This document shows positions 39,010 through 61,918 of a DNA stretch of 64,000 nt, piece after piece (position 1 is the stretch's first letter; each line of letters starts with the position of its first letter). The position numbers were made by a program, and so were the translations under genes. Source of the stretch: Candidatus Methylomirabilia bacterium (GTDB taxonomy: Bacteria; Methylomirabilota; Methylomirabilia; Rokubacteriales; CSP1-6); contig JBGQEL010000010.1 in the NCBI GenBank assembly GCA_041496385.1, positions 7,387-71,386 of the forward strand, written 5' to 3'. Below the pieces are notes generated by a model. It was given only the letters and a program-made list of their open reading frames with translations, was not told the DNA's origin and did no database searches.

Positions 39010-39047
39010 AAAAGCGAAAGGGCCACGGGTCGCTTCACCCGTGGCCC
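39010..39047 (-). terminator. Intrinsic terminator of the attenuator
   Basis: 11-bp stem GGGCCACGGGT/ACCCGTGGCCC with a 6-nt loop, followed by TTTCGCTTTT. Confidence 0.85.
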
Positions 39048-39101
39048 CCAGAGTTTCCATCGCCACGGGCCCATCTCCTGCCCGTGGCATCCGATCTCGC
39101 G

Positions 39102-39220: not shown

Positions 39221-39985
39221 TCAAGATCGCTTGCCCCGTCCCCGCCCCCCCTCGTCGTCCCTGCCGAGCACGAGCTCCTCGACAGCCTCGAGGTGGTCGA
39301 CCATGGCCCGTCGCGCCTCACGCTCGTCGCGCGCGGCGATCGCGGCCAGGATGCGCTGGTGATCCTGGTGCGAACGCGTCGGCCGGCCGGGCGTGTTGAG
39401 CGATTCCTCCCGGCTCTGGGTGAGAAGGTCCATGACCGCGTGCGCGATCCGCGTGATCGCGCGGTTGTGCGCCGCCGCGCCGATGGCCGCGTGGAAGGCC
39501 GCGTCCTGGGTCAGGCCGGTCTTGCCGTCCGCGATCTCGCGCGCCTGCTCCGCGAGGATCCGCTCCATCTCCTGGATCTCCTCCCGGGTGGCGCGCGCCG
39601 CGGCGAGCTCCGCGAGCGCCGGCTCGAGGAGCCGGCGCGCCTCGAAGAGCTCGCCGATCGCCTCGCGCTGCGACGTCATCACCAGCGCGAGCGGCTCGAC
39701 CAGCGCCTCGATCGACACCTCGCGGACGAACGTCCCCTCCCCGGCGCGGATCTCGAGGAGCCCCAGACTTTCGAGCGCGCGCAGCGCCTCGCGGACCGAG
39801 GTGCGGCTCACGACGAACTTCTCGGCCAGGTCGCGCTCGGGCGGGAGCTGATCGCCGCTCTTGAGTCGCCCCTCGGCGATCATCTGCTTGACCTGGCGGA
39901 CGATCTCCTCGTAGATGCGCGTGGACTTGATCGGCGAGAGGCTCACGGTACGGTCGGGGCGCCGCGCGCGCCCACGGGCGGGCAT
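39221..39985 (-). CDS. GntR/FadR-family transcriptional regulator
   Basis: GDQLPPERDLAEKFVVSRTSVREAL wHTH plus FCD domain (DAAFH...AAHN, HQRIL); start may instead be GTG 39946. Confidence 0.93.
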   Translation of the reverse strand: MPARGRARRPDRTVSLSPIKSTRIYEEIVRQVKQMIAEGRLKSGDQLPPERDLAEKFVVSRTSVREALRALESLGLLEIRAGEGTFVREVSIEALVEPLALVMTSQREAIGELFEARRLLEPALAELAAARATREEIQEMERILAEQAREIADGKTGLTQDAAFHAAIGAAAHNRAITRIAHAVMDLLTQSREESLNTPGRPTRSHQDHQRILAAIAARDEREARRAMVDHLEAVEELVLGRDDEGGRGRGKRS

Positions 39986-40689
39986 CAGGGGCTCCTCCGC
40001 GCGTGCGCGTGGCCGTGGCGCCGCGCGCGCGCGAACCACCAGCCGAGCGCCGCGATGAGCGCGCCGATGGCCGGAGGCGTCACGCGGTGAAGCGTTCCCG
40101 CCGCGTCGCCGAGCCAGCGCGTCACGAGCCGGTCCTCCAGGACCATCTCGCCCGCGACGTAGCCCAGGAGCCCGCCCCCCAGCCAGACGATCCACGCGTA
40201 GCGATTCATCAGGTAGGCGAGAAGCCCCGCGCCCCAGACCACGATGGGCAGCGAGAGCCCGATCCCGAACATGACGAGGAGGAGATCGCCGTGCGCCGCC
40301 GCCGCGATCGCCAGCACGTTGTCCAGGCTCATCGTCACGTCGGCGACGATGATGATCCAGACGGCCTCCCAGAGGGACGTCCCGTGCCGCACGCCGCCGT
40401 CCGCGTCCGCGCCCGGTCGCACGAGCCGGGCGGCGATCCAGATGAGCAGCAGCCCGCCCGCGAGCTGGAGCAGCGGCACCCTGAGGAGCACGCTCACGAT
40501 CGCGACGAAGACGAGCCGCAGCACCACCGCGCCGACCGCACCCCAGATCTGCCCCAGCACGCGCTTGCGTTTGGGCAGCGCGCGCACGGCGAGCGCGATG
40601 ACCAGCGCGTTGTCGCCGGACAGGATGAGATTCAGGAAGCCAATCCCGAGGAGACGCACCCAGAACTCGGGGTCGAGGAGGACGGCCAT
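39985..40689 (-). CDS. TerC-family (YjbE-like) membrane protein
   Basis: NLILSGDNALVIALA and ADVTMSLDNVLAIA motifs. Confidence 0.9.
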   Translation of the reverse strand: MAVLLDPEFWVRLLGIGFLNLILSGDNALVIALAVRALPKRKRVLGQIWGAVGAVVLRLVFVAIVSVLLRVPLLQLAGGLLLIWIAARLVRPGADADGGVRHGTSLWEAVWIIIVADVTMSLDNVLAIAAAAHGDLLLVMFGIGLSLPIVVWGAGLLAYLMNRYAWIVWLGGGLLGYVAGEMVLEDRLVTRWLGDAAGTLHRVTPPAIGALIAALGWWFARARRHGHAHARRSP

Positions 40690-42194
40690 CAGGCGCCCGG
40701 CGCCGGCGCCCCGCGCATCCGGCGCCACCACGGCGTCAGCACGGGGAGGGCGAAGAAGAGAAGGGCGACGCCGGTGATCGCGCCCGCGATCGGTCGCGTG
40801 ACGAAGATCGCGACCGAGCCCTGCGACATGATGAGGCTCTGGCGGAGCGCGTTCTCGGCGAGGTCGCCCAGCACGAGGGCCAGGACCAGCGGCGCCAGCG
40901 GGTAGTCGAGCTTCTTGAACACGTAGCCCACCACGCCGAAGATCACCATGTACCAGATGTCGATCATGCTGTTGTGCACGGCGTAGGAGCCGACGGCGCA
41001 CACGACCACGATCACGGGCGTCAGGATCGCAAACGGGATGCGGAGGATCATGGCGAAGAACGGCACGAACGCCAGGACCATCAGCACGCCGATGATGTTC
41101 CCGGTGTACATGCTCGCGATGAGTCCCCAGACGAACTCGGGGCGTTCCTTGAAGAGGAGCGGCCCGGGCTGGAGACCCCAGATGATGAGCCCGCCGAGCA
41201 TCACGGCCGCGGTCGGTGAGCCCGGGATGCCCAGCGTGAGCATCGGCAGCATCGCGGCGACGCCCGCCGCGTGGGCGGCGGTCTCGGGCGCCACGACCCC
41301 CTCCAGCTCGCCCTGCCCGAACCGTTCCGGATGCCGTGAGAAGCGCTTGGCGAAGGCGTAGCTCATGAACGAGGCGGGCGTGGCGCCTCCCGGTTTGAAG
41401 CCCATCCAGAAGCCGATGAACGAGCCGCGCACGAACGTGCGCCAGTAGCGCGGCAGGATCTTCCAGGTCTCGAGGACGACCCCGAGCTTCATGCCCGTGG
41501 GCGCGCTGCGGAACGAGAGCCCCTCCTCGACCGACAGGAGGATCTCGCCGACCCCGAACAGGCCGATGACGGCGACGATGAAGTCGAAGCCTTTCATCAG
41601 ATCCACGAAGCCGAAGGTCATCCGGAGCTGGCCGGTGACGATGTCGAGCCCCACCGCGGCGAGGATGAAGCCGAGCAGGATCGAGACGAGCGACTTGAGC
41701 GGGTTACCGCCGCCGAGGCCGACGAAGCTCGAGAAGGTCAGGAGCTGGATCGCGAAGAACTCGGGCGGCCCGAACTTGAGGGCGATCTCCGCCAGGACCG
41801 GCGCGAAGAAGGTGATCAGGACGATCGAGAAGAAGGCGCCGACGAACGACGAGGTGAACGCGGCGGTCAGCGCCTGGCCCCCCTTCCCCTGGCGCGCCAG
41901 CGGGTAGCCGTCGAACGTCGTTGCGACCGACCACGGCTCACCGGGGATGTTGAAGAGGATAGACGTGATGGCCCCGCCGAAGAGCGCGCCCCAGTAGAGC
42001 GACGTCAGCAAGATGATCGCGGAGGTCGGCGGCATGGTGAACGTGAGCGGCAGCAGGATCGCGACACCGTTGGCCCCACCCAGCCCCGGCAGGACGCCGA
42101 TGATGGTGCCGAGGGTGATGCCGACGACGGCGACGAACAGGTTGTAGGGCGTGATCGCGACGTGGAAGCCGAGGACGAGGTTTTCGATGCCCAT
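40689..42194 (-). CDS. tctA: Tripartite tricarboxylate transporter, large subunit
   Basis: GVLPGLG, LFNIPGEP, DGYPLARQG, APETAAHA and LTLGIPGS; about 12 TM helices. Confidence 0.92.
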   Translation of the reverse strand: MGIENLVLGFHVAITPYNLFVAVVGITLGTIIGVLPGLGGANGVAILLPLTFTMPPTSAIILLTSLYWGALFGGAITSILFNIPGEPWSVATTFDGYPLARQGKGGQALTAAFTSSFVGAFFSIVLITFFAPVLAEIALKFGPPEFFAIQLLTFSSFVGLGGGNPLKSLVSILLGFILAAVGLDIVTGQLRMTFGFVDLMKGFDFIVAVIGLFGVGEILLSVEEGLSFRSAPTGMKLGVVLETWKILPRYWRTFVRGSFIGFWMGFKPGGATPASFMSYAFAKRFSRHPERFGQGELEGVVAPETAAHAAGVAAMLPMLTLGIPGSPTAAVMLGGLIIWGLQPGPLLFKERPEFVWGLIASMYTGNIIGVLMVLAFVPFFAMILRIPFAILTPVIVVVCAVGSYAVHNSMIDIWYMVIFGVVGYVFKKLDYPLAPLVLALVLGDLAENALRQSLIMSQGSVAIFVTRPIAGAITGVALLFFALPVLTPWWRRMRGAPAPGA

Positions 42195-42197: not shown

Positions 42198-42659
42198 CTA
42201 GAAACCGAGCCACGCTTCGAGCGGACCCTTCGGCATCGGGACCAGAAACCACTTCTCGAAGACCAGGAACGTCGCGAGCGGGAACAGGATCGCCATCGCC
42301 AGGACGGCCAGCCACCCGTGGCGGCCGATCCAGCGCATGTAGAACCCCGTGTAGAGCGCGGCCGCGACGTAGAGCCCGAGCCACTGCGTGAGGACGACCA
42401 GCGCCACCGCCGGCCAGAGGACTTTCAGCACCGGCCCGAGCTGCGCCTGCGTCACGAAGGGCCGTCCGGCCGGGCCGCGCGCCGCCTGGAGGACGATGAC
42501 GGCGCAGGCCGCGATCATGAACACACCGAGCCAGAACGGGAAGAAGCCGCTCTGCGGGCCGTCGGTCCCCCAGCCGATGCCGAGCCGGGCCGAGTCGAAA
42601 ACGACGACGCCGGCCAGCAGCATCAGGAACGACGCGGTGACGAGATCCGCGATACGCAT
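42198..42659 (-). CDS. tctB: Tripartite tricarboxylate transporter, small subunit
   Basis: Four TM helices; GPQSGFFP and FEKWFLVPMPKG. Confidence 0.85.
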   Translation of the reverse strand: MRIADLVTASFLMLLAGVVVFDSARLGIGWGTDGPQSGFFPFWLGVFMIAACAVIVLQAARGPAGRPFVTQAQLGPVLKVLWPAVALVVLTQWLGLYVAAALYTGFYMRWIGRHGWLAVLAMAILFPLATFLVFEKWFLVPMPKGPLEAWLGF

Positions 42660-42672: not shown

Positions 42673-43644
42673 CTACTTCTTGAGCAGCCCCCCCTTGGCC
42701 ATCAGCTCCTTGTGGAGCTTCTCGTTCTCCTCGACCCAGGCCACGTACTCGGCGCCCTCGGCGAACGCCGGCTTGAGCGCGCCCTCGGTCAGGTATTTCT
42801 GAAAGTCGGGCGTGTCGTAGACCTTCTTCAGCAGGGCGACGTACCAGTCCACGGCCTCCTTGGGCATGTTCGGAGGCCCGAACATGCCGCGCAGCATGAG
42901 GTAGTGGACGTCGACGCCCAGCGCCTCCTTGACCGTCGGGATGTCCTTCCACTCCGCGACGGGAATGCGCGCGGTGTCGAAGACCGCGAGCGGCCGGACC
43001 CGCCCGCCCTTCCAGTGGCTCGCGCACTCGATCGGGTTGTTCACGGTCGAGTCGACGTGCTTGCCCACGAGGTTCACGCACACCTCGCCGCCGCCCTTGA
43101 ACGGCACGTAGATGAACTTGAGGCCGAGCGCCTGCTCCAGCTGGATCGTGAGGATCTGATCCTCCTGCGCGGAGCCGGTGCCACCCATCTTCTTGCCCAA
43201 GGGCTTCTCCTTCACGGCGGCGATGTAGTCCTTGGCCGTCTTGTAGGGCATCTCGGCGTTCACCCAGAGGATGAACTGGTCGAGCGCCATGCGGGCGATC
43301 GGGCTGAGGTCGCGCCAGTTGAACGGAATGCCGGTATGCAGCGGGGTCGTGAACAGGTTCGAGAGGGTGATGATCATCGTGTGGGCGTCGCCCTTCCGGC
43401 CCTTGACGTCGAGGAAGCCCTCGGCACCGGCGCCGCCCGCTTTGTTCACCACGATGATCGGCCGGGGGGAGAGCTTGTGCTTCTCGGCGATGCCCGAGAT
43501 CAGGCGCGCCATCTGGTCGGCGCCGCCTCCCGTGCCGGCGGGTACGACGAGCTCGATGGGTTTGGTCGGCTCCCAGGCCGCGGCGGGCGCGCCCAGGGAC
43601 ACGATCAGGATCGCGATCAGCGCGAGTACGGTGATGAGCCTCAT
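42673..43644 (-). CDS. tctC: Tripartite tricarboxylate transporter substrate-binding protein (Bug/TctC)
   Basis: Signal peptide, WEPTKPIELVVPAGTGGGAD, VVNKAGGAG and VPFKGGG. Confidence 0.9.
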   Translation of the reverse strand: MRLITVLALIAILIVSLGAPAAAWEPTKPIELVVPAGTGGGADQMARLISGIAEKHKLSPRPIIVVNKAGGAGAEGFLDVKGRKGDAHTMIITLSNLFTTPLHTGIPFNWRDLSPIARMALDQFILWVNAEMPYKTAKDYIAAVKEKPLGKKMGGTGSAQEDQILTIQLEQALGLKFIYVPFKGGGEVCVNLVGKHVDSTVNNPIECASHWKGGRVRPLAVFDTARIPVAEWKDIPTVKEALGVDVHYLMLRGMFGPPNMPKEAVDWYVALLKKVYDTPDFQKYLTEGALKPAFAEGAEYVAWVEENEKLHKELMAKGGLLKK

Positions 43645-43751: not shown

Positions 43752-43787
43752 GCGGGCCGGGCCCCGGGACGCCGGGGCCCGGCCCGC
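43752..43787. repeat. Perfect 16-bp all-GC inverted repeat with a 4-nt loop
   Basis: GCGGGCCGGGCCCCGG-GACG-CCGGGGCCCGGCCCGC in the oxidoreductase-to-tctC spacer. Confidence 0.85.
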
Positions 43788-43835: not shown

Positions 43836-44867
43836 CTACTTGGTCTCGAGCGCGGCCTTGGTCGCGTCGAGCCGCCGGAACGGGACGACCGCAGGGATTT
43901 CCCACTGCTCCCACATCTCGTCCACCTTCTTCTGGAAGTAGTGAAGATCCTCTTCGAGGAAGTGGGCGAAGCGGCCCTGTTTCAGGAGGTACTCGCGCAC
44001 CGGCTTGCGCGCGCGCCCCTCGACGATCGCCTTGGTCTTGCCGTAGTACTTCACCTGGCCGTCCTCCACCTCGTAGAGGGGGAAGATCCCGGTCTCGATC
44101 GCCAGCTCGCCGAGCTCGTGGGAGAGCATCGGGTCGTAGTCCCAGCCCTTCGGGCACGGGTCGAGCGAGTGGATGAAGGTCGGGCCGCCGATCGAGAGGG
44201 CGCGGCGGACCTTGTTCATCATCTCGACCGCGTAGGACGGGCAGACGGTCGCGACGTACCGGCACTCCGTGTGGCCCGCCGCCAGCATGCCCGCCGTGTT
44301 CTTCTTCCAGCGCGTGTGGATGAGGCGCTTGACCGTGCCCGGCGGGCTGAACGTCGTGTTGGCGCCGTAGGGCGTCGAGCCCGAGAGCTGGATGTCGGTG
44401 TTCGCGTACGACTCGTTGTCGTAGAGCAGGATGAGGCTGTTGTACTCCTTGTGGGTCAGCGTCGCGGAGATCGCGCCGAGCCCCATGTCCGCCCCGCCGC
44501 CGTCGCCGCAGAACGCTATAACATTGATCGGCTCGGACTTCATCTTGCCCTTCTTCATGAGCGCCTTGAGGCCCGCGGCGGTGCCGAGCGCGGCGGAGCC
44601 CGAGGAGCCGAGCTGCGTGTGCATCCACGGCACCACCCACGGCGTTGTGTAATAGGTCGTGTTGGCGACGTACATGCAGCCCGTCGAGCCCAGCACGATC
44701 GTGCGGGGGCCGGACGCCTTCACCATGAGCTTCATGACGAGGGCGGACTCGCAGCCCTGGCAGGTCCGGTGGCCCGACGTGAAGTACTCCTCGATCGTGA
44801 CCTTCTTGACGCCCCGGAACGGCTCCAGGATCTGCGTGGCGTTGGTGAACGTCGTGGTCTCAGCCAT
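43836..44867 (-). CDS. 2-oxoacid:ferredoxin oxidoreductase beta subunit, oxalate oxidoreductase-like
   Basis: GHRTCQGC, TGCMYVANT, GDGG...YDNESYANT (TPP-binding) and PCPKGW. Confidence 0.88.
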   Translation of the reverse strand: MAETTTFTNATQILEPFRGVKKVTIEEYFTSGHRTCQGCESALVMKLMVKASGPRTIVLGSTGCMYVANTTYYTTPWVVPWMHTQLGSSGSAALGTAAGLKALMKKGKMKSEPINVIAFCGDGGGADMGLGAISATLTHKEYNSLILLYDNESYANTDIQLSGSTPYGANTTFSPPGTVKRLIHTRWKKNTAGMLAAGHTECRYVATVCPSYAVEMMNKVRRALSIGGPTFIHSLDPCPKGWDYDPMLSHELGELAIETGIFPLYEVEDGQVKYYGKTKAIVEGRARKPVREYLLKQGRFAHFLEEDLHYFQKKVDEMWEQWEIPAVVPFRRLDATKAALETK

Positions 44868-44879
44868 GGCCGTGCTCTC

Positions 44880-46109
44880 CTATTCTCGAACGCCGAGCCA
44901 GTGCGTCTTCGAGTCCGACTTGCCCGACTGCGCGGCACCGTAGCACATGTCGGTCGCCTTGTTGACGTCCTCCAGCGTGACCTCGCGCCCGCCGAGGCCG
45001 CAGATGAACGAGAGGAGCGGCGGGCGCCGCGCGGCGTTGTACATGGCCGCGCGGATCTCGTTGGCGACCACGCCCGAGGCGAACGGCGAGCCGAACGAGT
45101 AGTTCCGGTCGATGACACCGATCGCCTGCGCCTTGGACAGGGCCGCCACCAGCCGGTCGGTCGGGAACGGCCGGAACCAGCGGAGCCGCACGAGGCCGAC
45201 CTTCTTGCCCTTGGCGCGCATCTCGCGGATCGCGACCTTGATGGGGAGCGAGATGGTCCCCATCCCGACGAGGATCACCTCCGCGTCGTCCGTCATGTAC
45301 TCCTCGAACCAGGGGTTCTCGGGCCCGCGGCCGAACACGCGCCGGAAATCGGCGTACGCTTCCTCGATGACCGTGTAGGCACGCTTCATCGCCTCGTCGT
45401 TCTGGCGGCGGATCTCGATGACCCAGTCCTCGTTCGCCTGCGGCGCGACGGTGATCGGGTTGTCCGGATGGAGCAGCAGATCGCCCCGGTTGTATCGCGG
45501 CAGGAAGGCGTCCACCTTCGCCTTGGGCGGCACCATCGTGAGCGCCTGCGAGTGCGTCAGGAACGCGCCGTCGGCCGAGATCGCGATTGGCAGGAAGATC
45601 CGCCGATCCTCGGCCACGCGGTAGGCGATCAGCGTCGTGTCGAGCGCCTCCTGCGAGGTATCGATCCAGCAGAGGAGCCAGCCGAGGTCGCGGACGACCA
45701 GCGCGTCGTTGTGCTCGACGCCGAACGCCCCGGGATCGTCGAGCGCGCGGTTGCCGACGAGCGCGACCATCGGCACCCGCAGCGGCGGCGTCACGACCAG
45801 GCACTCCATCGCGTACATCCAGCCCACGCCCGACGAGCCGCAGAAGACGCGGGCGCCCACCGTCGAGGCGTGCTTGACGATCTCGAACTGGCTGTGCTCG
45901 CCCTCCGCCACGATGTACTCGGCGACCAGATTGCCGTTGGCGATCTTCTTCGCGATCGCCTGCATCACCGTGTCGTACGGCCGGATCGGGTACGCCGTCA
46001 CCACGTCGATGTCGGCCAGGGTCAGGGCCTCGGCCACGGCCTCGCTGCCCGAGATCAGGAGCTCTTTGTCTTCGCTCGCGGCCGGCGCCGCCTTCGTCAC
46101 CACCGCCAT
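44880..46109 (-). CDS. 2-oxoacid:ferredoxin oxidoreductase alpha subunit, oxalate oxidoreductase-like
   Basis: YPIRP in place of the PFOR YPITP motif, EGEH, NRALDDPGAFG and FRPFP. Confidence 0.88.
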   Translation of the reverse strand: MAVVTKAAPAASEDKELLISGSEAVAEALTLADIDVVTAYPIRPYDTVMQAIAKKIANGNLVAEYIVAEGEHSQFEIVKHASTVGARVFCGSSGVGWMYAMECLVVTPPLRVPMVALVGNRALDDPGAFGVEHNDALVVRDLGWLLCWIDTSQEALDTTLIAYRVAEDRRIFLPIAISADGAFLTHSQALTMVPPKAKVDAFLPRYNRGDLLLHPDNPITVAPQANEDWVIEIRRQNDEAMKRAYTVIEEAYADFRRVFGRGPENPWFEEYMTDDAEVILVGMGTISLPIKVAIREMRAKGKKVGLVRLRWFRPFPTDRLVAALSKAQAIGVIDRNYSFGSPFASGVVANEIRAAMYNAARRPPLLSFICGLGGREVTLEDVNKATDMCYGAAQSGKSDSKTHWLGVRE

Positions 46110-46124
46110 CGTCGTCCTCCAGCC

Positions 46125-47333
46125 CTACGAGGTCTTGTGCTGCGCGTTCTCGCCCGGGATGCCCGCCGTGATCTCGACACCGCCCGTGTCCAGCTCCGTC
46201 TTCAGCTCTTCCTCGTACTGGCCGCGGAACCGGAAGCCGTGCGAGCGGACCGTCGCCTGCTTGTCGTCGATCTTTCCGGTCATCCAGGTCCGGTACGCGT
46301 CCTTGTCCTTCCGCCACATCTCCCACTGGCTGGCGTTGTCGTCGAACACCGACTCGTTCACCATCGTGATGCACTTCTCGACGGGACAGACCGCCTCGCA
46401 GACGCCGCAGCCGCAGCACGAGTCCATGTTGGCGTCATAGGTGCCGTCGGGCATCACGTCGAAGCAGGAGTCGGGGCACTGGATCCAGCAGAGCGTGCAC
46501 TTGACGCAGGTGTCGAAGTTGATCACCGGGCGCATCGTGCGCGTCGTGTACTTCTTGAAGTACGGGTTGCGCTCCGGGACGTAGCCCTTCCCCGCCTCCT
46601 TCGGCTTGCCGAGCGGGATCGCCGGGATCGTCACACCCTCACGCATCTCCCACCACTTGGGCATCTCGAACGAGAACGGCACCTCGTCGTTGCCCTCGGT
46701 GAGCTTCACCTCGCGGGTCTCGATCCGGTCGTAGGCCTTCTTCGCGGACTCGACCTTGATGTCGGAGCCCCACTCCATCTCGCGGATCGCCTGACTGACC
46801 CCGTCGAGGCTCAGGAACGACGGGGCGATCCTGGCGAGCGCGCCCAGGATGCGCACCTCGGTGTGGTCCTCCTTGTAGACCCAGAGGCCCGAGAACGAGG
46901 CCTTGGCGCGGATCAGCGAGAGCTTGTACGGAGCATCCTTCTTGTGGATGTCCTCGAGCAGGTCGTCGAACCTCTGCAGCGAGGTCATCAGCACCGTGCC
47001 GTTCGGCACGGTGAGCCGGTTGATCGGCTGGAGCCCGTACCAGGCCCACGACTCGACGCCCTTGGAGAGCGTGTCGTCCACGCAGATCGTGACGTCCACG
47101 TGCTTGGGCTCGTAGCGGGCCATGTTCTGCTCGAGCTCTTCCTTGCTGTCCGCGACGATCGCGAAGTCCTTCGCCGGGATGCCGTTGCGCTGCGGGCTGT
47201 CGCCGTAGCGGCCGAACGCGATGCCCCAGCGGCCGGACTTGCGCGCCGACAGCACGATGCCGCGCGCGATGCGGGCGGCGAGGTTCTTCTGGAAGATGCC
47301 GCGATAGACGATCTCGCAGATCAGGGCTGCCAT
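46125..47333 (-). CDS. Fused gamma-delta subunit (divergent gamma domain plus 2x[4Fe-4S] ferredoxin), OorD-like
   Basis: CVKCTLCWIQCP and CCGCGVCEAVCP; no GxGGQG loop in the N-terminal domain. Confidence 0.85.
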   Translation of the reverse strand: MAALICEIVYRGIFQKNLAARIARGIVLSARKSGRWGIAFGRYGDSPQRNGIPAKDFAIVADSKEELEQNMARYEPKHVDVTICVDDTLSKGVESWAWYGLQPINRLTVPNGTVLMTSLQRFDDLLEDIHKKDAPYKLSLIRAKASFSGLWVYKEDHTEVRILGALARIAPSFLSLDGVSQAIREMEWGSDIKVESAKKAYDRIETREVKLTEGNDEVPFSFEMPKWWEMREGVTIPAIPLGKPKEAGKGYVPERNPYFKKYTTRTMRPVINFDTCVKCTLCWIQCPDSCFDVMPDGTYDANMDSCCGCGVCEAVCPVEKCITMVNESVFDDNASQWEMWRKDKDAYRTWMTGKIDDKQATVRSHGFRFRGQYEEELKTELDTGGVEITAGIPGENAQHKTS

Positions 47334-47376
47334 GCGCGTCTCCTCACCGGGGCGCCGGCCCCCGGGACTTGGCTAC

Positions 47377-47427
47377 TGGTCGAATGGTCTGACCGGAGAA
47401 TACCCCGGGCGGGGACTGAGCTGTCAA
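47377..47427 (-). promoter_or_regulatory. Promoter and FadR-type operator upstream of the oxidoreductase operon
   Basis: TTGACA (47427-47422), 19 nt, TATTCT (47402-47397); TGGTC-gaa-TGGTCTGACC at 47377-47394. Confidence 0.6.
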
Positions 47428-48215
47428 GGGGCCCTCGACAGGAACCCCTCGAGAGCCCGCGTAAAGGCCTCAGGCTGCTCGATATTCGACAGATGTGACG
47501 CGGACTTGATTATCGTCAGCTCAGATCCGGCGATATGCTCGTGGATCACCCGAGCGGCCGCGACCGGCGTCCCCAGATCATCCTCGCCGACGATGACGAG
47601 CGTCGGGATCTTGATGACGCCGAGCCGATCCGTGAGGTCGAGCTTCGAGATCGCGTGACAGCAGCCGGCGTAGCCCGCGGGGTTCGTTCCTCGGATCATC
47701 GCGGCCACGCGCTGGACGACCTCCGGACGCTTCTCCCTGAAGGGCGGCGTGAACCAGCGGCCCAGCGTGGGCTCGACGAGCGGCTCCATGCCCTGGGTCT
47801 CCGCGGTGCGGATCCGGTCATCCCACGCCGCGCGCATCTCGGGAGGCACGCGGCTGGACGTGTCGCAGAGGGCGAGGCTTGCGAAGAGGCCGGGCGCCTT
47901 GAGCGCGAGGGTCTGGCCGATCATGCCGCCCATCGAGAGCCCGACCCAGTGCGTCTTCGCGATCCCGAGCGCCCCGAGGAGCGCGCGGGCGTCCTCCGCG
48001 AGCTGGTCGAGCGTGTACGCCCCCCGGGGCGCGTCGGTCGCGCCGTGGCCCCGCGTCTCGTACTGGAGCACCCGGTACCGCCTCGCCAGCGCCGTGAGCT
48101 GCGGCTCCCACATGGCGAGCGTGGTCGCAAGCGAATGACTCAGCGTGACCACCGGGGCCCCGGCGGGGCCCTCGAGCGAGTAGTTGACGGAGATCCCGTT
48201 GACCGTGACCTTCAT
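47424..48215 (-). CDS. Alpha/beta hydrolase, 3-oxoadipate enol-lactonase-like
   Basis: SHSLAT, RGHG, GLSMGG nucleophile elbow and SHLSNIEQP. Confidence 0.85.
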   Translation of the reverse strand: MKVTVNGISVNYSLEGPAGAPVVTLSHSLATTLAMWEPQLTALARRYRVLQYETRGHGATDAPRGAYTLDQLAEDARALLGALGIAKTHWVGLSMGGMIGQTLALKAPGLFASLALCDTSSRVPPEMRAAWDDRIRTAETQGMEPLVEPTLGRWFTPPFREKRPEVVQRVAAMIRGTNPAGYAGCCHAISKLDLTDRLGVIKIPTLVIVGEDDLGTPVAAARVIHEHIAGSELTIIKSASHLSNIEQPEAFTRALEGFLSRAP

Positions 48216-48847
48216 GACGCTCCTCCTTGGGTCCGGTGCGCGTCGATCGTCCACTGGACCGCGTCGGCCGCCCGGTGGTCGTTCGGCCGCGCGCGGCGGC
48301 GCAGCTCGTCCACGATCTTCGCGCGCGCGTCCGGCGTGCGGTTCTGCGCGAGCTTGAATTTCGGACGACGGGCCCGGATGTCGAGCCGGACCGCCGCGAT
48401 GTGGGCGATCGCGCCCCGATAGAGCGGGTCGTCCGGGGTCACCGGCCGGAAGCCCCCCTCCGGCTGGTACCGGCCGAGCAGCTTCGTCTGCTGCGCGGCC
48501 AGCGCCCCCGCGTCGTCGGACACCGTGGCCTGGCAGTCGAAGATGACCGTCCGGTGATACGCCGTCGCCATGACCGCGTTCTCCGGATGCACCCAGTACG
48601 AGGGGATAACCGCGAGCACTTCGTCGACCTCGAAGAGGCAGCGCGGCCGCGCCCGGAGGTCTTCGATCTGCTCGTCCTTGCGGACCAGGTGAATCTCGAA
48701 TGCGTCACCGTCGTACACGAAGGGGTAGAGCCCGATGTGGGGCGTCCCCCCGGCGTCGGCGGTGACGAGACGCCCCATCTCCTGGGAGCGGACGAACCGG
48801 TCCACCTCGTCCCGCGGCACGTCCGCGTAGTAGTCGTGGAAGATCAC
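48212..48847 (-). CDS. FMN-binding split-barrel protein, PaiB-like
   Basis: PHIGLYPF, IPSYW...ATAY and KFKLAQNR pattern; GTG start overlaps the pdxT stop. Confidence 0.7.
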   Translation of the reverse strand: MIFHDYYADVPRDEVDRFVRSQEMGRLVTADAGGTPHIGLYPFVYDGDAFEIHLVRKDEQIEDLRARPRCLFEVDEVLAVIPSYWVHPENAVMATAYHRTVIFDCQATVSDDAGALAAQQTKLLGRYQPEGGFRPVTPDDPLYRGAIAHIAAVRLDIRARRPKFKLAQNRTPDARAKIVDELRRRARPNDHRAADAVQWTIDAHRTQGGAS

Positions 48848-49449
48848 GCGCGCGCTCCTTTGGCCGCTCGCCGGACCATGTCGCGAAAGTAGCGGTGCAC
48901 GGCCTGCTCGCCCGTCACCTCCGGGTGGAAGGTCGCCACGAGCACCCCGCCCTGCCGGGCCATGACGGGATCGTCGCCCTGACGCGCGAGCACGTCGACG
49001 CCCGCGCCGACCCGCCGGATGCGCGGGGCGCGGATGAACATCATGTCGATGGGTGTCGGCCGCCCGTCGAGCATCGCCGTCCCCCGGCTCTCGAACGACT
49101 CCCGCTGGCGCCCGTAGGCGTTTCGCTCGACGGTGACGTCGATCAGGCCGAGAGAGAACTGCCGGGGGTTCTCGACCTCCCGCGCGAGCACGATGAGACC
49201 CGCGCAGGTGCCGAAGATGGGTCTGCCCTCGGCGTGGAACTTCTCGATCGCGGGGACGAATCCCCACTCGTCCATGAGCTTGAGCAGCGTCGTCGACTCG
49301 CCACCCGGAATGAGCAGGCCGTCCACGTCGGCCAGCTCGGCCGGCTTGCGGACCTCGACCGCCGCGACGCCGCACGTCGCGAGCGCCGCGGCGTGGAGGC
49401 CGAAATCGCCCTGAAGGGCGAGCACGCCGATTTTCACGTTTTCGGTCAT
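48844..49449 (-). CDS. pdxT: PLP synthase glutaminase subunit
   Basis: GVLALQGDF, PGGEST, GTCAG, RNAYGRQ, FIRAP and FHPE. Confidence 0.95.
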   Translation of the reverse strand: MTENVKIGVLALQGDFGLHAAALATCGVAAVEVRKPAELADVDGLLIPGGESTTLLKLMDEWGFVPAIEKFHAEGRPIFGTCAGLIVLAREVENPRQFSLGLIDVTVERNAYGRQRESFESRGTAMLDGRPTPIDMMFIRAPRIRRVGAGVDVLARQGDDPVMARQGGVLVATFHPEVTGEQAVHRYFRDMVRRAAKGARA

Positions 49450-49505
49450 TTCACCGCTCACCTCGGACGGCGGGGCCGCAGCCCCGCGACGTCCTGCGGC
49501 TCGCA

Positions 49506-50402
49506 CTACCAGCCCCGGGTCTGGAGCAGGTCCTTCTCCTCGAGCTTCGAGGTCTCGATCCCGGGCATCGCCTCGCCCAGCTCCTCCGAGACGCGCGCGA
49601 GGACGTCGGCATCCTTGAAGTGGGTCGTCGCCTGGACGATCGCCTTGGCGCGCTTGGCCGGATCGCTCGACTTGAAGATGCCCGAACCGACGAACACCGA
49701 CTCGGCGCCGAGCTGCATCATGAGCGCGGCGTCGGCCGGCGTCGCGATGCCACCCGCCGAGAAGTTCGGTACCGGGAGCTTGCCGGTCTTCGCCACCCAG
49801 CGCACGAGCTCGTAGGGCGCGCCGAGGGTCTTCGCCTCGGTCATGAGCTCCTCGGGCGAGAGCAGCGTCAGCCGCCGCATCCCGGACACGAGCGCCCGCA
49901 TGTGGCGCACGGCCTCGACGATGTTGCCCGAGCCGGCCTCGCCCTTCGTGCGGATCATCGCCGCGCCCTCGCCCACACGGCGGAGCGCCTCGCCGAGGTC
50001 GCGCGCGCCGCACACGAACGGCACCCGGAAGGCGAACTTGTCGATGTGAAAATGCTCATCCGCGGGCGTCAGCACCTCCGACTCGTCGATGAAGTCCACG
50101 CCGAGGGCCTCGAGGATCTGCGCCTCGACGAAGTGGCCGATGCGCGCCTTGGCCATCACGGGGATCGTCACCGTCTTCTGGATCTCCCGGATCTTCCTCA
50201 CCGGCGACATCCGCGCGACGCCGCCCTCCTTGCGGATGTCCGCGGGCACACGCTCGAGCGCCATCACGGACACCGCGCCCGCGTCCTCGGCGATCTTCGC
50301 CTGCTCGGCGTTGGTGACGTCCATGATGACGCCGCCCTTCAGCATCTCCGCGAGGCCGATGTGCTTCTTGTCCGCGATGCGCAGCCCGTTCACGTCCATC
50401 AT
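49506..50402 (-). CDS. pdxS: PLP synthase lyase subunit
   Basis: [37 protein letters not shown] and [11 protein letters not shown]. Confidence 0.97.
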
Positions 50403-50446
50403 GTGGATCTCCTTTGTCTTGGCCGGTCGGCCAGTCGATTCCTACC

Positions 50447-51976
50447 CTAGACCAGCGGAACCGTCGCGCGTGCCGCCCGCTCGCGCTCCGGGACCCGTCC
50501 GCGCGCCGCCCGGATCGTCTCCGCCAAACGCTTGACCCCCTCGTCGATCCGCGCCGCCGCCACCGACGAGAACGAGAGCCGCAGGGTCCTCTCGCCGCCC
50601 CCGTCCACGAAGAACGCGGCGCCCGGCGTGAACGCGACGCCGCGCTCGCCCGCGGCGGGCAGCAGCGCGCCGGCGTCGAGCCCGGGCGGCAGCGTCACGA
50701 GGAGCGAGAACCCGCCCTGCGGCTCGGTCCACGTGACCTCGGCCGGCATCCGTCGACGGAGCGCCGCCAGCAGGAGCGCGCGTCGCCGCGCGTACTCGCG
50801 GGCGACCCGCGTCACGTGACGGTCCAGGAGCTTGCGCTCGCAGAACCGGTAGACCGCGGCCTGGAGCAGCGCGCTCGTGTGCAGGTCGGCGAGCTGCTTG
50901 GCCGCGAGGAGCCGGTCGAGGACCGGCCGCGGGCCGACGAGCCAGCCGAGCCGCAGCCCGGGAAAGAGGATCTTCGAGAACGTCCCGATGTAGATCACGA
51001 CCCCGTCCCGGTCGAGCGCCTTGAGCGGGACCGCCGGCCGCTCGCCGTAGTAGAGGCTGCCGTCGAAGCCGTCTTCGACCACCGGCACCTGATGGCGCGC
51101 GGCGACGTCCAGGAGGCGCCGCGCCGTCTCGAGCGTGAGGGAGAGTCCGGTCGGGTTGTGCGCGCTGGGCTGGCAGTAGAAGAGCTTCGGCGCGTGACGC
51201 TCGAGGAGCCGCTCGAAGGCGTCCACCCGCGGGCCCGACGTGTCCCAGGGCACCGCCAGCAGCTGGGCGCCGAAGGAACGGAAGACCTGCAGCGCGCGGG
51301 GGTAGGTCGGATCCTCGATCGCGACGGCATCTCCCGGGTCGAGCAGCGTGCGGGCGATCAGGTCGAAGCCCTGCTGGGAGCCGTTGACGATGATGATGTC
51401 GTCGGGCCGCGCCTCGAGCCCGAATCTCAGGAGATAGGTCGAGAGATACTGCCGGAGCGGCGGATAACCGCCGGCGGGGTAGTACTGCAGGAGCGCGGCG
51501 CCGTCCTCGCGGATCACGTCGTTCAGCACGCGGCGGAAGGCGTCGGTCGGGAAGAGCCCGCTGTCGGGCATGCCACCCGCGAACGAGATGACCGCGGGAT
51601 TGGCTGCCGCCGTGCTCGCGAGGGCCCGCGTCCGGTCCTCCTCGGCGACCACGATCTGCGCGCTCCGCGAGAACAGGCCCGGCCAGTTGAGCGGCACCTG
51701 GGACGGGACCTGAGCCTCGGGCGCCGCCTGGGTCCCGGGCGACTCGGCGACGAAGGTCCCCTGGCCCACGTGGGCCCGGGCCCAGCCCGCGGCCACGAGC
51801 TCCTCGTAGGCCTGCGCGACGGTGGCGCGGTTGACGCCGAGCTGCTGCGCGAGGTCGCGCGTGGCCGGCAGCTTCATCCCGGGCGTCAGGAGCCGCTCGC
51901 GGATGAGGCGCTCCAGGTACGCCTGGATCTGGCGCGGCAGCGCGACGGGCTTCTCGCGGTCGAGCGGGATGTGCAC
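50447..51976 (-). CDS. MocR/GabR-family PLP-dependent regulator (PdxR-like)
   Basis: wHTH (KLPATRDLAQQLGVNRATV) plus aminotransferase-like domain (GTFSKILFPGLRLG); SD AAGGAG before GTG 51976; adjacent to pdxST. Confidence 0.9.
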   Translation of the reverse strand: MHIPLDREKPVALPRQIQAYLERLIRERLLTPGMKLPATRDLAQQLGVNRATVAQAYEELVAAGWARAHVGQGTFVAESPGTQAAPEAQVPSQVPLNWPGLFSRSAQIVVAEEDRTRALASTAAANPAVISFAGGMPDSGLFPTDAFRRVLNDVIREDGAALLQYYPAGGYPPLRQYLSTYLLRFGLEARPDDIIIVNGSQQGFDLIARTLLDPGDAVAIEDPTYPRALQVFRSFGAQLLAVPWDTSGPRVDAFERLLERHAPKLFYCQPSAHNPTGLSLTLETARRLLDVAARHQVPVVEDGFDGSLYYGERPAVPLKALDRDGVVIYIGTFSKILFPGLRLGWLVGPRPVLDRLLAAKQLADLHTSALLQAAVYRFCERKLLDRHVTRVAREYARRRALLLAALRRRMPAEVTWTEPQGGFSLLVTLPPGLDAGALLPAAGERGVAFTPGAAFFVDGGGERTLRLSFSSVAAARIDEGVKRLAETIRAARGRVPERERAARATVPLV

Positions 51977-52088
51977 CGTGGTCTCCTTACAGGGCCATTC
52001 TCCGAGTATTCCTGGCGACGTCAAGGGCCAATTGGCCTGCTCGGTACCAGGCCACGCTATAATCCTCCGCACCGGGAGGAGGCCCCTC

Positions 52089-52268
52089 ATGTCCCTGGGC
52101 GAGGCGCCGATCAGGCAGGCCGTGAAGTGGATCGAGGACCGGCTGCGCGACGACCCGGCGGCCGATCGCCTCAGGCTCGTCGACGAGGCGTCGCGGCAAT
52201 TCGACCTGACGCCGCTCGATGAGGACTTCCTCCTCCGGCACCTGGCCGAGCGCCGCAAGGACGGATGA
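52089..52268 (+). CDS. Small hypothetical protein (59 aa)
   Basis: TATAAT at 52058-52063, SD GGAGGAGG, ATG 52089; stop overlaps the next start. Confidence 0.8.
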   Translation: MSLGEAPIRQAVKWIEDRLRDDPAADRLRLVDEASRQFDLTPLDEDFLLRHLAERRKDG

Positions 52269-53041
52269 GCGAGGCGCAGACCCGCCGCGTCCAGGCGCAA
52301 TTCGGCGCGACCCCGCAGGCCTACGTCGCGAGCGTCGGTCACGCCGGCGGCGCCGATCTCGAAACGCTGCTGGCCTGGGGACGCGCCCGCCGCCCGGCGC
52401 GGGTCCTCGACGTCGCCACCGGGGGCGGTCACACGGCCCTCGCCTTCGCCGGACTCCCGGCGCGCGTCGTCGCGTTCGACCTGACGGAGGCGATGCTCCG
52501 CGCCGCGCGCGACTTCGTCGGCGGCCGCGGCGCGACGGGCGTGAGCTTCGTCGCGGGCGACGTCGAGGCGCTCCCCCTCCGCGAGGGCGCCTTCGACCTC
52601 GTGACCTGCCGGATCGCCGCCCACCACTTCGCCGACGTCGCCGCCGCCGTCCGCCAGATCCAGCGCGTGCTGCGCCCCGGTGGCTCCTTCCTCGTGCAGG
52701 ACATCCTCGGTCACGACGATCCCGAGGCGAGCGCCTTCATCACCGAGGTCGAGCGACGCCGCGACCCCTCCCATGTCCGCGCCTACCGCGCGACGGAGTG
52801 GAAGGCCTTCCTGAAGGCCGCCGGCATGACGGTGATGGCCGAGGCGATCGTGAGCAAGGTCCGTCCGTGGGGCGACTGGACGGCCCGGATGGGGATGAGC
52901 GTCGAGGCGCGGCGTGAGCTCGAGGCCTTCGTGCGCGGCGCGCCCGAGCCCTGCCGCCGCGCCTTCGACGTGAGACTCGCGGGCGACGCGGTCGAATCGT
53001 TCGCCGACCGCATGATCCTGCTCCGCGCCGACCGCGACTAG
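52265..53041 (+). CDS. Class I SAM-dependent methyltransferase
   Basis: VLDVATGGG, GDVEALP, FDLVTCRIAAHHF and RVLRPGG. Confidence 0.9.
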   Translation: MSEAQTRRVQAQFGATPQAYVASVGHAGGADLETLLAWGRARRPARVLDVATGGGHTALAFAGLPARVVAFDLTEAMLRAARDFVGGRGATGVSFVAGDVEALPLREGAFDLVTCRIAAHHFADVAAAVRQIQRVLRPGGSFLVQDILGHDDPEASAFITEVERRRDPSHVRAYRATEWKAFLKAAGMTVMAEAIVSKVRPWGDWTARMGMSVEARRELEAFVRGAPEPCRRAFDVRLAGDAVESFADRMILLRADRD

Positions 53042-57359: not shown

Positions 57360-58210
57360 AAGGCGCGATCCCCGGCAAGGTCGTCGGCCTCGAGGTCGGC
57401 GCCGTCAGCCAGACGCTGGACGCGCGCTGGCTCATGGCCTACGCGGCGGGGCTGGGCGAGACCGACCCGCGCTACTACGACACGGAGGCGCCCGGCGGGC
57501 CGCTGGCCCACCCGATGTTCGCCGCGTGCTACGAGTGGCCCGTGGCGCTCTCGCTGCGCGCGAAGACGATCAAGCCCGAGCTGCTGCCCCTCGGCGTCCA
57601 GACGAGCCACCACCTCGTCATCCACCGGCAGCCCGCGGCGAGTGATCGCCTGCTCACCCGCGGGCAGGTCGTCACGGTCAAGCCGGTCCGCGCGGGCACC
57701 CTCGTCGTCACGCGCTATTCCAGCGTGGACCGCAACGGCCGGCCCGTCACGACGACCGACTATGGCTCGATCTTCCGCCGCGTGACCACGGAGGGCGAGG
57801 CGAGCGCCGCCGTGCCGCCGCTGCCACGTCCGGAGCCGCCGGCGGGCGACGAGGTGCGCTGGATCGCGACGGTCGCCGTCGGCCTGCAGGCCGCCCACGT
57901 CTACTCCGAGTGCGCGCGCATCTGGAACCCGATCCACACCGACATCGCCGTCGCCCGCGCCGCGGGGCTTCCCGGGCTGATCCTGCACGGCACCGCGACC
58001 ATCGCGCTCGCGGTCTCGCAGGTGATCCAGCGCGACCTGGCCGGCGACCCGACGCGGGTCGCCGAGCTCACCGCGAGGCTCGCGGGCATGGTCTCGATGC
58101 CGTCGAGCCTCGTCGTTCGCGGCCGCGCGCGCGCCGGGAACCGGGTCGCCTTCGACGTCATGAACGAGCGTGGCGAGCCGGTGCTGAGCGACGGCGTCAT
58201 CCGCGCATGA
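57356..58210 (+). CDS. Tandem hot-dog MaoC-family dehydratase
   Basis: N-terminal MaoC-like domain (YAAGLGE...AHPMF) and C-terminal WNPIHTD...GLILHG motif. Confidence 0.82.
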   Translation: MKGAIPGKVVGLEVGAVSQTLDARWLMAYAAGLGETDPRYYDTEAPGGPLAHPMFAACYEWPVALSLRAKTIKPELLPLGVQTSHHLVIHRQPAASDRLLTRGQVVTVKPVRAGTLVVTRYSSVDRNGRPVTTTDYGSIFRRVTTEGEASAAVPPLPRPEPPAGDEVRWIATVAVGLQAAHVYSECARIWNPIHTDIAVARAAGLPGLILHGTATIALAVSQVIQRDLAGDPTRVAELTARLAGMVSMPSSLVVRGRARAGNRVAFDVMNERGEPVLSDGVIRA

Positions 58211-61552: not shown

Positions 61553-61918
61553 ATGCCGACGCGGCCCTCCAAGACCATCGAGGTCGTGCCGAACCCCCAT
61601 CCCGACCGCGACTACGAGGTCGCGATGACCGTGCCCGAGTTCACCTGCCTCTGCCCGCTCACGGGGCAGCCCGACTTCGCGACGATCCGGATCCGCTATG
61701 TGCCCGACCAGCACCTGGTCGAGCTGAAGGCGCTGAAGCTCTACATCTGGTCGTATCGCGACGAGGGCGCGTTCCACGAGGACGTCACCAACCGCATCCT
61801 GGACGACCTCGTGGCGGCGGCCCGGCCGCGGTGGGCCGAGGTGATCGGCGACTTCAGCGTGCGCGGGGGCATCAAGACCGAGGTGCGCGCGACCCACGGA
61901 AAGCGCCCCGAACTCTAG
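61553..61918 (+). CDS. queF: NADPH-dependent preQ0 reductase (type I)
   Basis: [34 protein letters not shown] and VRGGI. Confidence 0.95.

Follow-up and report, generated by a model that had tools for sequence, protein, structure and literature searches.

A widespread sister subfamily of oxalate oxidoreductase with a rearranged active-site loop, predicted in Rokubacteria and Acidobacteriota and linked to putative oxalate transporters

Three consecutive minus-strand genes of a Rokubacteria contig encode the gamma-delta, alpha and beta subunits of a 2-oxoacid:ferredoxin oxidoreductase whose closest match of known structure is the oxalate oxidoreductase (OOR) of Moorella thermoacetica. The genes occupy 43836-47333 of the stretch of DNA analyzed here, 64,000 nt in length and referred to as the window, which corresponds to positions 7,387-71,386 of contig JBGQEL010000010.1 in assembly GCA_041496385.1, Candidatus Methylomirabilia bacterium (Rokubacteriales, CSP1-6). 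The enzyme keeps the substrate-binding arginine of Moorella OOR and has alanine in place of an aspartate implicated in catalysis, and its sequence relationships suggest that it represents a sister subfamily of OOR that is distinct, occurs very widely, is misannotated and is linked to putative oxalate transporters.

Bacterial oxalate oxidation drives the oxalate-carbonate pathway, and surveys of oxalate degraders count the genes for formyl-CoA transferase and oxalyl-CoA decarboxylase, with at most Moorella-type OOR besides. If the clade described here oxidizes oxalate, the capacity of soils to degrade oxalate has been underestimated and thousands of genes carry a wrong annotation. PMC5020499 describes Arg31 of the "unique YPIRP motif" of OOR as binding oxalate by its distal carboxylate, and ascribes a "bait and switch" mechanism to Arg31 and Asp116. 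An original prediction, made from the window sequence, held that the three genes encode an OOR-clade enzyme outside the acetogens, with an altered active-site loop and activity toward oxalate or a related small substrate. Our literature search found no relevant paper on OOR in Rokubacteria or Acidobacteria, or on the clade to which the window enzyme belongs.

In this study, we examine the three subunits, their relatives and their gene neighborhoods. Relatives were collected by a scan of one genome per species (GTDB), which returned at least 567 alpha relatives, and gene context was taken from the best 80 loci (L numbers), all of which belong to the clade of the window enzyme and have alpha subunits 64-90% identical to the window alpha. 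A second search covered 1.84 billion representatives of clusters formed at 50% identity (P numbers).

Subunit architecture, active-site residues and family placement

The three open reading frames (ORFs) have exactly the boundaries originally predicted for a gamma-delta fusion, an alpha and a beta subunit, as judged from the ORF list. Their third-position GC of 0.96-0.97, in a window of ~70% G+C, distinguishes them, as genuine frames, from the many spurious ORFs that overlap there. Together they carry the features of the 2-oxoacid:ferredoxin oxidoreductase superfamily, namely POR_N, PFOR_II, domain VI, the proximal [4Fe-4S] cysteines and domain V, and they share gene order and domain composition (III+V, I+II, VI) with Moorella OOR (PDB 5C4I, 5EXD, 5EXE; NCBIfam NF045790-NF045792). 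The best PDB match of each subunit is a chain of that enzyme, with E-values too low for a chance resemblance: 5c4i_A for alpha (E 3e-97, 329.5 bits), 5c4i_C for beta (E 1.8e-86, 293.6 bits) and 5c4i_B for gamma-delta (E 3.6e-16, 62.2 bits; residues 10-330 versus 19-313). Second in each case is the four-subunit pyruvate:ferredoxin oxidoreductase (PFOR) of Methanosarcina acetivorans (9BT4), with 215.4 bits for alpha (9bt4_B), 200 bits for beta (9bt4_C) and 44.8 bits for gamma-delta, the last over the ferredoxin domain only. The alpha and beta scores are thus 114 and 94 bits lower than against OOR, and the Methanosarcina enzyme, whose alpha and beta have a fold in common with the window subunits (TM 0.90), further differs in having YPITP, another substrate loop, separate gamma and delta subunits and a use for coenzyme A (CoA).

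Residues 19-405 of alpha align with residues 7-391 of 5c4i_A (HMMER against the PDB), and because this alignment is gap-free from residue 19 to about residue 208, the offset of 12 between the two numberings is exact. Arg43 of YPIRP therefore equals OOR Arg31, Glu71 of EGEH equals Glu59, Arg121 equals Arg109, Asp124 equals Asp112, Asp125 equals Pro113, Ala128 equals Asp116 and Phe129 equals Phe117; the equivalents of Gly115, Gly118 and Glu120 are kept as well. The eight-residue mobile loop reads Leu123-Asp124-Asp125-Pro126-Gly127-Ala128-Phe129-Gly130 and has the length of the OOR loop, with no gap. These assignments bear out what had been predicted for Arg43, Glu71, Arg121, Ala128 and Phe129, including alanine at the Asp116 position and an additional aspartate, Asp125, three residues earlier. 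The OOR numbering on which that prediction relied is right by alignment; Arg31 in YPIRP and Asp116 are also named as functional residues in PMC5020499.

The altered loop is not a peculiarity of one genome but is fixed in a very large clade. The sequence NRALDDPGAFG is present in 120/120 close homologues (88-93% identical), and LDDPGAFG in all 80 window-type alphas from the species-representative loci. All 120 homologues of OOR proper (61-97% identical to Moorella) have LDPPGDFG, and 115 of 119 alphas of an archaeal clade have LDDPGNFG, with Asn at position 116. A comparison of four groups of alpha sequences (75 window-type, 120 OOR, 119 archaeal and 75 outgroup) identified ten residues that are invariant in all three Arg-bearing subclades and occur in no more than 10% of the 75 outgroup clusters: Arg43, Tyr45, Gln74, Gly91, Asp124, Gly127, Phe129, Gly130, Glu132 and Trp148. 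The window alpha keeps all ten. Arginine at the YPIRP position is found in 0/75 outgroup clusters, 92% of which have threonine (YPITP), and the Phe129 equivalent, fixed in the three subclades, is present in 3% of the outgroup. All three Arg-bearing subclades share the "bait" arginine and the scaffold of the loop.

Between the window clade and OOR proper there are twenty fixed alpha differences, which include Asp46 (OOR Thr34), Asn120 (Asp108), Asp125 (Pro113) and Ala128 (Asp116). Since 98% of the archaeal sister-clade sequences and 47% of the outgroup clusters have Asn at position 116, Asp116 looks like an innovation of the Moorella-type lineage and not like a residue that the window clade lost from a common OOR ancestor. 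The beta subunit adds 24 fixed differences. It contains the GDGG...DNESYANT motif that binds thiamine pyrophosphate (TPP) and the proximal-cluster cysteines Cys36/39/64/238; its Asn156 corresponds to the substrate-contacting Asn143 of OOR, and a clade-specific aspartate, Asp158, occupies the position of OOR Gly145. The resulting motif is NTD in 75 of the 76 window-type betas in which it is readable, and NTG in Moorella OOR, in Asp116-type paralogues and in two archaeal loci. The bacterial clade is defined by four changes: the loop aspartate is lost, and aspartates are gained at alpha 125 within the loop, at alpha 46 adjoining YPIRP and at beta 158 close to the conserved Asn. Neither alpha Asp46 nor beta Asp158 formed part of the original prediction.

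The gamma-delta subunit, whose gamma domain is degenerate, has 26% identity to its Moorella counterpart (BLASTP, E 1e-23). Its ferredoxin-like domain (residues 270-324; Pfam, 2x[4Fe-4S]) has two CxxCxxCxxxCP motifs, Cys276/279/282/286 and Cys306/309/312/316, and the 12 cysteines of the three clusters are all kept in the window enzyme and across phyla. Canonical gamma subunits have GRGGQG near the start of the domain, a glycine-rich loop that binds CoA in PFOR and whose absence is the structural basis for the CoA independence of OOR. At the corresponding point the window subunit has VYRGIFQKN, aligned with ARGVVMNK of OOR, and the loop is absent from both, as had been predicted for the window. 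The Pfam gamma model PF01558 gave no match to the window gamma-delta even at E<=10, whereas the Moorella subunit matches it with 54 bits. The window subunit is also 87 aa longer than the Moorella one (402 versus 315 aa), owing to a ~25-aa insertion and a ~70-aa C-terminal extension. A single-sequence model of it was unusable, with a predicted local distance difference test (pLDDT) score of 34.7. Taken by its sequence, the build of the window enzyme, with its TPP site and Glu59 equivalent, its three clusters, its pocket of two arginines and Phe129, and a gamma domain without the glycine-rich loop, is that of Moorella OOR.

A structural comparison with Moorella OOR had been proposed as a check with the original prediction. 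An AlphaFold model of alpha (pLDDT 86.8) superimposes on 5c4i_A with template modeling (TM) scores of 0.91/0.95 (Foldseek), and almost equally well on the PFOR chain 9bt4_A (0.90/0.92). The alpha fold therefore does not tell OOR and PFOR apart (TM 0.91 versus 0.90).

A neighbor-joining tree, which is distance-based and covers alpha only, was built from 97 full-length sequences (379 trimmed columns, 100 bootstraps). All Arg-bearing alphas, comprising OOR, the window clade and the archaeal clade, formed one group with a bootstrap of 100, and arginine in YPIRP occurs only there. OOR proper was monophyletic without the window sequence (bootstrap 100). The window alpha paired with P0122 (bootstrap 100), and this pair joined P0134 (bootstrap 93), which represents a large archaeal clade of Bathyarchaeia, Sulfolobales, Fervidicoccus and Thermoplasmata. 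The search of cluster representatives placed very few full-length clusters near the window alpha: its own, P0122 (68%, same loop), P0134 (45%; FPIRP, LDDPGNFA) and three OOR-type clusters (LDPPGDFG). The remaining alphas of that list have Thr-type, YPITP-like motifs. One of them, the PFOR-type alpha P0186, is interrupted at precisely the site of the substrate loop by an intein-like insertion of ~320 aa, between ...RGLSAPITLW and CDHNDI.

The prediction that the subunits would cluster with OOR and not with PFOR, VOR or KGOR thus holds for alpha. Membership of the OOR clade itself holds in part: the enzyme belongs to the Arg-bearing lineage, as indicated by the 100% bootstrap and the ten residues, and lies outside the characterized OOR clade. 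The OOR equivalog is the best NCBIfam model for all three window subunits, and the window alpha is 43% identical to the Moorella alpha. Because of the tree placement and of scores that fall below the NCBIfam OOR cut-offs, we assign the window enzyme to the OOR lineage in the broad sense and, in the strict sense, to a putative sister subfamily. The archaeal sister clade, named PFOR in databases, shares with it YPIRP, the Arg121 equivalent, LDDPG (Asp at the Pro113 position) and the order of the genes; neither clade has Asp at position 116, and the archaeal gamma-delta is likewise long (373-386 aa) and gives no PF01558 match. It differs in having Asn at position 116 and NTG in beta with no Asp158 equivalent, in its identity of ~45%, and, in the two loci examined, in the lack of an adjacent regulator or transporter.

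More than 5,600 proteins of a database clustered at 90% identity match the window alpha at E<=1e-30. Hosts of the best 80 loci are mostly Methylomirabilota/Rokubacteria and Acidobacteriota (Terriglobia, Sulfotelmatobacter, Angelobacter, Acidobacteriaceae), with Armatimonadota, Dormibacterota, Anaeromyxobacteraceae, one SAR202 Chloroflexi genome, Bacillota and others among the rest. The expectation of an OOR-like enzyme outside acetogens is therefore borne out for the window clade, although OOR proper, too, occurs beyond the acetogens. In NCBI and JGI the close homologues are uniformly called "pyruvate ferredoxin oxidoreductase", and OOR proper is named correctly by NCBI down to ~69% identity. 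A few loci carry odd taxon labels: L006 and L011 (83-85% alpha identity) are filed as "Candidatus Nitrosocosmicus sp.", an archaeon, and "Thermodesulfobacteriota", and L059 (66%) as "Patescibacteria group". The genes of L006 follow the complete Rokubacteria order, and these labels probably reflect binning errors in metagenome-assembled genomes and not a real distribution.

Gene context in the window and in related loci

Gene context is the main functional evidence for the enzyme. The order gamma-delta, alpha, beta is kept wherever all three genes are on the contig (80 loci), and transporter genes usually follow beta on the same strand. Among the 68 loci with at least 1.5 kb of sequence after beta, a major facilitator superfamily (MFS) protein of the oxalate/formate-antiporter type is found in 40/68, the tripartite tricarboxylate-type transporter TctCBA in 15/68, and neither in 13/68. 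The MFS protein, of ~450 aa and directly after beta, was found by clustering all flanking ORFs. All nine of those tested scored above the NCBIfam cut-off for the oxalate/formate antiporter (386-533 bits versus 335), exceeding the next model by 86-192 bits. The loci with TctCBA include the window's relatives and four loci outside Rokubacteria (L024, L030, L036 and L038); in L024, L030 and L036, where TctC follows beta in other phyla, it is 50-65% identical to the window TctC. Because orthologous operons in other phyla carry the oxalate/formate-antiporter equivalog after beta, the substrate with the best support is oxalate. Genes for the synthesis or use of some other 2-oxoacid are not conserved beside the related loci.

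The presence of the OxlT equivalog in orthologous operons recalls Oxalobacter-type catabolism, which employs OxlT, formyl-CoA transferase and oxalyl-CoA decarboxylase. In contrast to that pathway, the TPP enzyme here belongs to the Fe-S oxidoreductases and should work without CoA, and frc and oxc were found neither in the window nor among the recurring gene families of the related loci. A gene for phosphate-selective porin O/P adjoins the OOR-like/OxlT operon at L037 6001-7608, at L061 14282-15874 and in six further Acidobacteria loci; this anion-selective outer-membrane porin may be the point of outer-membrane entry for the anion.

A GntR regulator with an FCD effector domain, homologous to that of the window, is present in 66/80 loci, with 38-52% identity outside Rokubacteria. 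Its gene lies directly upstream of gamma-delta in most non-Rokubacteria loci and after the transporter genes in Rokubacteria. The nearest NCBIfam models of the window protein are NanR, LldR, PdhR and GlcC, all below cut-off, and the protein is presumed to be the repressor of the enzyme operon. A candidate binding site, TGGTCnGACCA, is of the FadR/PdhR operator type. With up to one mismatch, this motif occurs at the operon start (-400 to +150 nt of the first operon gene, either the upstream GntR gene or gamma-delta) in 18/78 loci, compared with ~1.6 expected from its overall density of 49 matches in 1.31 Mb. Within the window alone the motif is not significantly enriched (3 matches versus 1.7 expected), and it is the position of the motif across loci that supports the operator, to which the GntR protein would bind. 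The regulator, the transporter and the operator are all additions to the original prediction.

The elements of the window operon are listed in Table 1. In 11 of the 13 Rokubacteria loci that were aligned, the TTGACA hexamer is kept ahead of gamma-delta with its spacing, and in the window the -35 element overlaps the TGA stop of an upstream pcaD-like gene. The 66-nt stretch with the hairpin that follows beta has a minimum free energy of -47.8 kcal/mol (z = -3.7), and 0/200 shuffles were as stable; a possible role of the hairpin is that of an attenuator or mRNA-stabilizing element between the enzyme and transporter genes. TctC, for which no NCBIfam model gave a match, is presumed to be the substrate receptor. 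The TerC gene, found at the same place in 8 Rokubacteria loci, is probably co-transcribed with tctA and the regulator gene, because it overlaps the stop of the former and the start of the latter by 1 nt each.

Table 1. Predicted elements of the enzyme operon in the window (window coordinates)
Feature	Position	Strand	Details
Predicted promoter	47397-47427	-	-35 TTGACA 47427-47422, -10-like TATTCT 47402-47397, 19-nt spacer; consensus match
Putative GntR/FadR-type operator	47376-47396	.	palindrome cGGTCAGACCa 47395-47385, then half-site CGACCA; directly after -10
Gamma-delta subunit (domains III + V)	46125-47333	-	402 aa
Alpha subunit (domains I + II)	44880-46109	-	409 aa; POR_N + PFOR_II (Pfam)
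Beta subunit (domain VI)	43836-44867	-	343 aa; TPP_enzyme_C (Pfam)
Hairpin	43752-43787	-	perfect 16-bp G+C-rich stem, 4-nt loop, 49 nt after beta stop, no U-run
TctC solute-binding protein, periplasmic	42673-43644	-	323 aa, N-terminal signal-like segment; Pfam TctC 118.9 bits
TctB small membrane subunit, tripartite tricarboxylate-type transporter	42198-42659	-	Pfam TctB 62.6 bits
TctA large membrane subunit	40689-42194	-	Pfam TctA 513.7 bits
TerC-family integral membrane protein	39985-40689	-	Pfam TerC 147.8 bits
GntR regulator with FCD effector domain	39221-39985	-	254 aa from internal ATG; Pfam GntR + FCD
Intrinsic-terminator-like hairpin ending the unit	39018-39049	-	13 pairs, then T-rich tail

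Two neighbors were considered as members of the unit and rejected. The pcaD-like hydrolase gene is not a conserved neighbor, and its stop codon precedes the operon promoter. It encodes an alpha/beta hydrolase (47424-48254, minus strand) that scores 275.9 against a cut-off of 255.85 for 3-oxoadipate enol-lactonase (PcaD), and no other pca genes were found in the window. The downstream gene for pyruvate phosphate dikinase is a neighbor only in Rokubacteria, with the terminator between it and the unit.

Like the window operon, that of Moorella OOR is flanked by genes for an FCD-type GntR regulator and a carboxylate transporter. The Moorella locus (L081) reads FCD regulator, CDC48-type ATPase (4670-6871), gamma-delta, alpha, beta and a lactate-permease-family transporter. 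Loci of the window type have no CDC48-type ATPase gene alongside, use TctCBA or an OxlT-type MFS protein as transporter, and belong to Rokubacteria, Acidobacteriota and other soil phyla. The Moorella regulator was considered as an orthologue of the window regulator and rejected, their 26% identity being similarity at the family level only.

In four Acidobacteria loci (L023, L025, L057 and L061), an enzyme of the window type and an Asp116-type OOR are encoded no more than ~10 kb apart. In these genomes the Asp116-type pair is preceded by two further genes (L023 2717-7687, L025 6364-11264, L061 1-6062, L057 1415-3771), for a 215-aa protein without a Pfam match and a 610-aa GltD-like protein (Fer4_20 + Pyr_redox_2), and a CDC48-type AAA ATPase gene is nearby, as in the Moorella locus. 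The GltD-like partner suggests an NAD(P)-coupled oxalate oxidoreductase.

Proposed reaction and competing readings

We consider it likely that the window enzyme works as an oxalate:ferredoxin oxidoreductase that is independent of CoA and has its acid catalyst rearranged, and that the whole unit serves the regulated uptake and oxidation of oxalate. The GntR/FCD protein would repress the promoter from the TGGTCnGACCA operator until an effector, presumably oxalate, is present. TctCBA would then import the oxalate dianion, a task that would fall to the antiporter-type MFS protein in other phyla. By its sequence, the enzyme has TPP between alpha and beta, activated by alpha Glu71, as well as one [4Fe-4S] cluster in beta and two in the ferredoxin-like domain. 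Arg43 and Arg121 would hold the distal carboxylate of oxalate, and the TPP ylide would attack the substrate with departure of the first CO2. Two electrons would pass, one at a time, through the three clusters to ferredoxin or a similar acceptor, and the second CO2 would be released without CoA. Since Asp116, which is thought to swing in during the second decarboxylation in Moorella OOR, is absent, this step would have to run otherwise. With Ala128 in place of the "switch", the negative charge that expels the second CO2 would probably come from residues fixed only in this clade. Candidates for this role are alpha Asp125, which belongs to the loop, and beta Asp158, which is two positions away from Asn156; alpha Asp46 may be a third.

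Several observations weigh against this proposal. The OOR equivalog cut-offs are missed widely, with scores of 370.7/500 for alpha (NF045791), 340.1/590 for beta (NF045792) and 77.7/230 for gamma-delta (NF045790), and the archaeal PorA model follows close behind the OOR model with 332.8 for alpha; an Acidobacteria orthologue of alpha likewise falls below the OOR cut-off (364.1/500). The "switch" aspartate of Moorella-type OOR, which is reported to be central to the mechanism, is replaced by Ala128, and pLDDT is below 50 at alpha 122-129, which makes the structural model uninformative on the loop. The window itself has no oxalate-specific gene, the ligand of TctC is not readable from its sequence, and a literature search found no link between the tripartite transporter family and oxalate. 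The antiporter family exchanges oxalate for formate, which is no product of the OOR reaction. In addition, most hosts are soil bacteria with an aerobic way of life, and the enzyme operon has no ferredoxin gene next to it. Of the original prediction that the enzyme oxidizes oxalate, the choice of substrate gains the most support, through the antiporter context, and turnover and independence of CoA are features that the enzyme would be expected to show.

A different substrate for the same chemistry is a less likely reading, to which we would give perhaps the odds of a minority view. In this case an enzyme of OOR-like architecture and CoA-independent mechanism would act on another small anion, such as glyoxylate, mesoxalate, oxamate or oxaloacetate, and the loss of Asp116 together with the gain of alpha Asp46, alpha Asp125 and beta Asp158 would reflect the changed substrate and not another way of dealing with oxalate. 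Several of the 20 alpha and 24 beta fixed differences do lie in or next to the substrate loop, the occurrence of both enzyme types side by side in some genomes fits the divergence of paralogues, and the window transporter TctCBA has no assignable specificity. Moorella OOR itself is said, in work of Pierce et al. of 2010, to turn over a few other 2-oxoacids slowly. However, the two arginines and Phe129, which define a pocket suited to a very small dianion, do not vary, the oxalate/formate-antiporter equivalog, with its margin of 86-192 bits, is the most frequent of the linked transporters, and no nearby gene for the making or use of another 2-oxoacid is conserved.

The association with oxalate/formate antiporters could also be taken to mean that formate is the product. 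Once the first CO2 has left, the TPP-bound one-carbon intermediate would be protonated by beta Asp158 and released as formate, and the antiporter would swap this formate for oxalate in an Oxalobacter-like proton-motive cycle without CoA. The linked MFS proteins pass the antiport equivalog model, the aspartate for the second decarboxylation is gone while a new acid has appeared beside the substrate-contacting Asn, and the window encodes a selenocysteine formate dehydrogenase-N, though ~19 kb away. We nevertheless regard an oxalate decarboxylase of this kind as very improbable: all twelve cluster cysteines are kept across phyla, which argues for electron transfer, Rokubacteria operons use TctCBA and not an exchanger, and the formate dehydrogenase is unlinked in other loci. 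We know of no TPP/Fe-S enzyme of this family that acts non-oxidatively.

Least probable is an ordinary CoA-dependent pyruvate or 2-oxoisovalerate:ferredoxin oxidoreductase (PFOR or VOR), for which speak the database names of the close homologues, the archaeal PorA score, the near-equal fit to the Methanosarcina PFOR fold and the pyruvate phosphate dikinase gene after the unit, and against which stand the arginine in place of the YPITP threonine, the missing glycine-rich gamma loop with PF01558 undetected, the union of the clade with OOR at 100% bootstrap, a dikinase neighbor restricted to Rokubacteria, conserved neighbors that are a carboxylate regulator and oxalate-type transporters, and alpha cut-offs missed by more (PorA_Arch 332.8/550, PRK08367 284.8/625, VOR alpha 240.4/646) than that of OOR alpha, with PorB also missed by beta (285.4/405).

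For enzymology, the clade amounts to a natural experiment on how bait and switch work together: it retains the "bait" arginine, has lost the "switch" aspartate and has acquired aspartates at three new positions, so that reciprocal mutations can address the role of Asp116 directly. More tentatively, and with less than even confidence, we propose that the Asp116 switch is a speciality of the Moorella type, and that the larger clade oxidizes oxalate independently of CoA by means of alpha Asp125, beta Asp158 or both. Were this so, enzymes now annotated as PFOR would constitute a main route from oxalate to CO2 in dominant, largely aerobic soil phyla (Acidobacteriota, Rokubacteria), and in Rokubacteria oxalate would reach this route through a tripartite tricarboxylate-type transporter, the first for this substrate.

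Other genes in the window

The formate dehydrogenase-N operon lies at 20350-26552 on the minus strand, in a stretch of lower G+C (0.64-0.65). An in-frame TGA at 24469-24471 (...HQARV*HSATVPALGTTFGRGAMT...) divides its alpha subunit into ORFs 24469-25053 and 21949-24447; the subunit scores 925.7 bits against TIGR01553 (cut-off 814.2) and has an N-terminal twin-arginine signal (RRDFLKF). Its partners are an FDH-beta-like Fe-S subunit (21167-21946), an NrfD-type membrane subunit (20350-21174) and FdhD (25779-26552).

Upstream of the enzyme unit, 48212-52774 (minus strand) contains pdxS (49506-50402), a pdxT-like glutaminase gene, a gene for a PNPOx-like FMN-binding protein and, within 50447-52774, an ORF for a MocR/PdxR-type regulator; pdxS, pdxT and PdxR-like genes are also found upstream in L001, L002 and L005. 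At 7621-10518 (minus strand), a 965-aa fusion joins a molybdopterin-oxidoreductase-like domain to a four-cluster Fe-S domain. Its best models are the menaquinone-reductase subunits QrcB and QrcC, both below cut-off (193 and 223 bits), and moeA is nearby at 2915-4129.

The region 55476-59229 (plus strand) encodes a corrinoid reductive-activase-like protein of the RACo/AcsV type (2Fe-2S + ASKHA; 382.5 bits versus a cut-off of 800), followed by an MtaA/CmuA-like methyltransferase of the URO-D fold; the pair suggests that methyl transfer in this member of the Rokubacteria may involve a corrinoid. Near the end of the window, at 61915-63846 (minus strand), a 643-aa protein has a C-terminal CHAT (caspase-like) domain.

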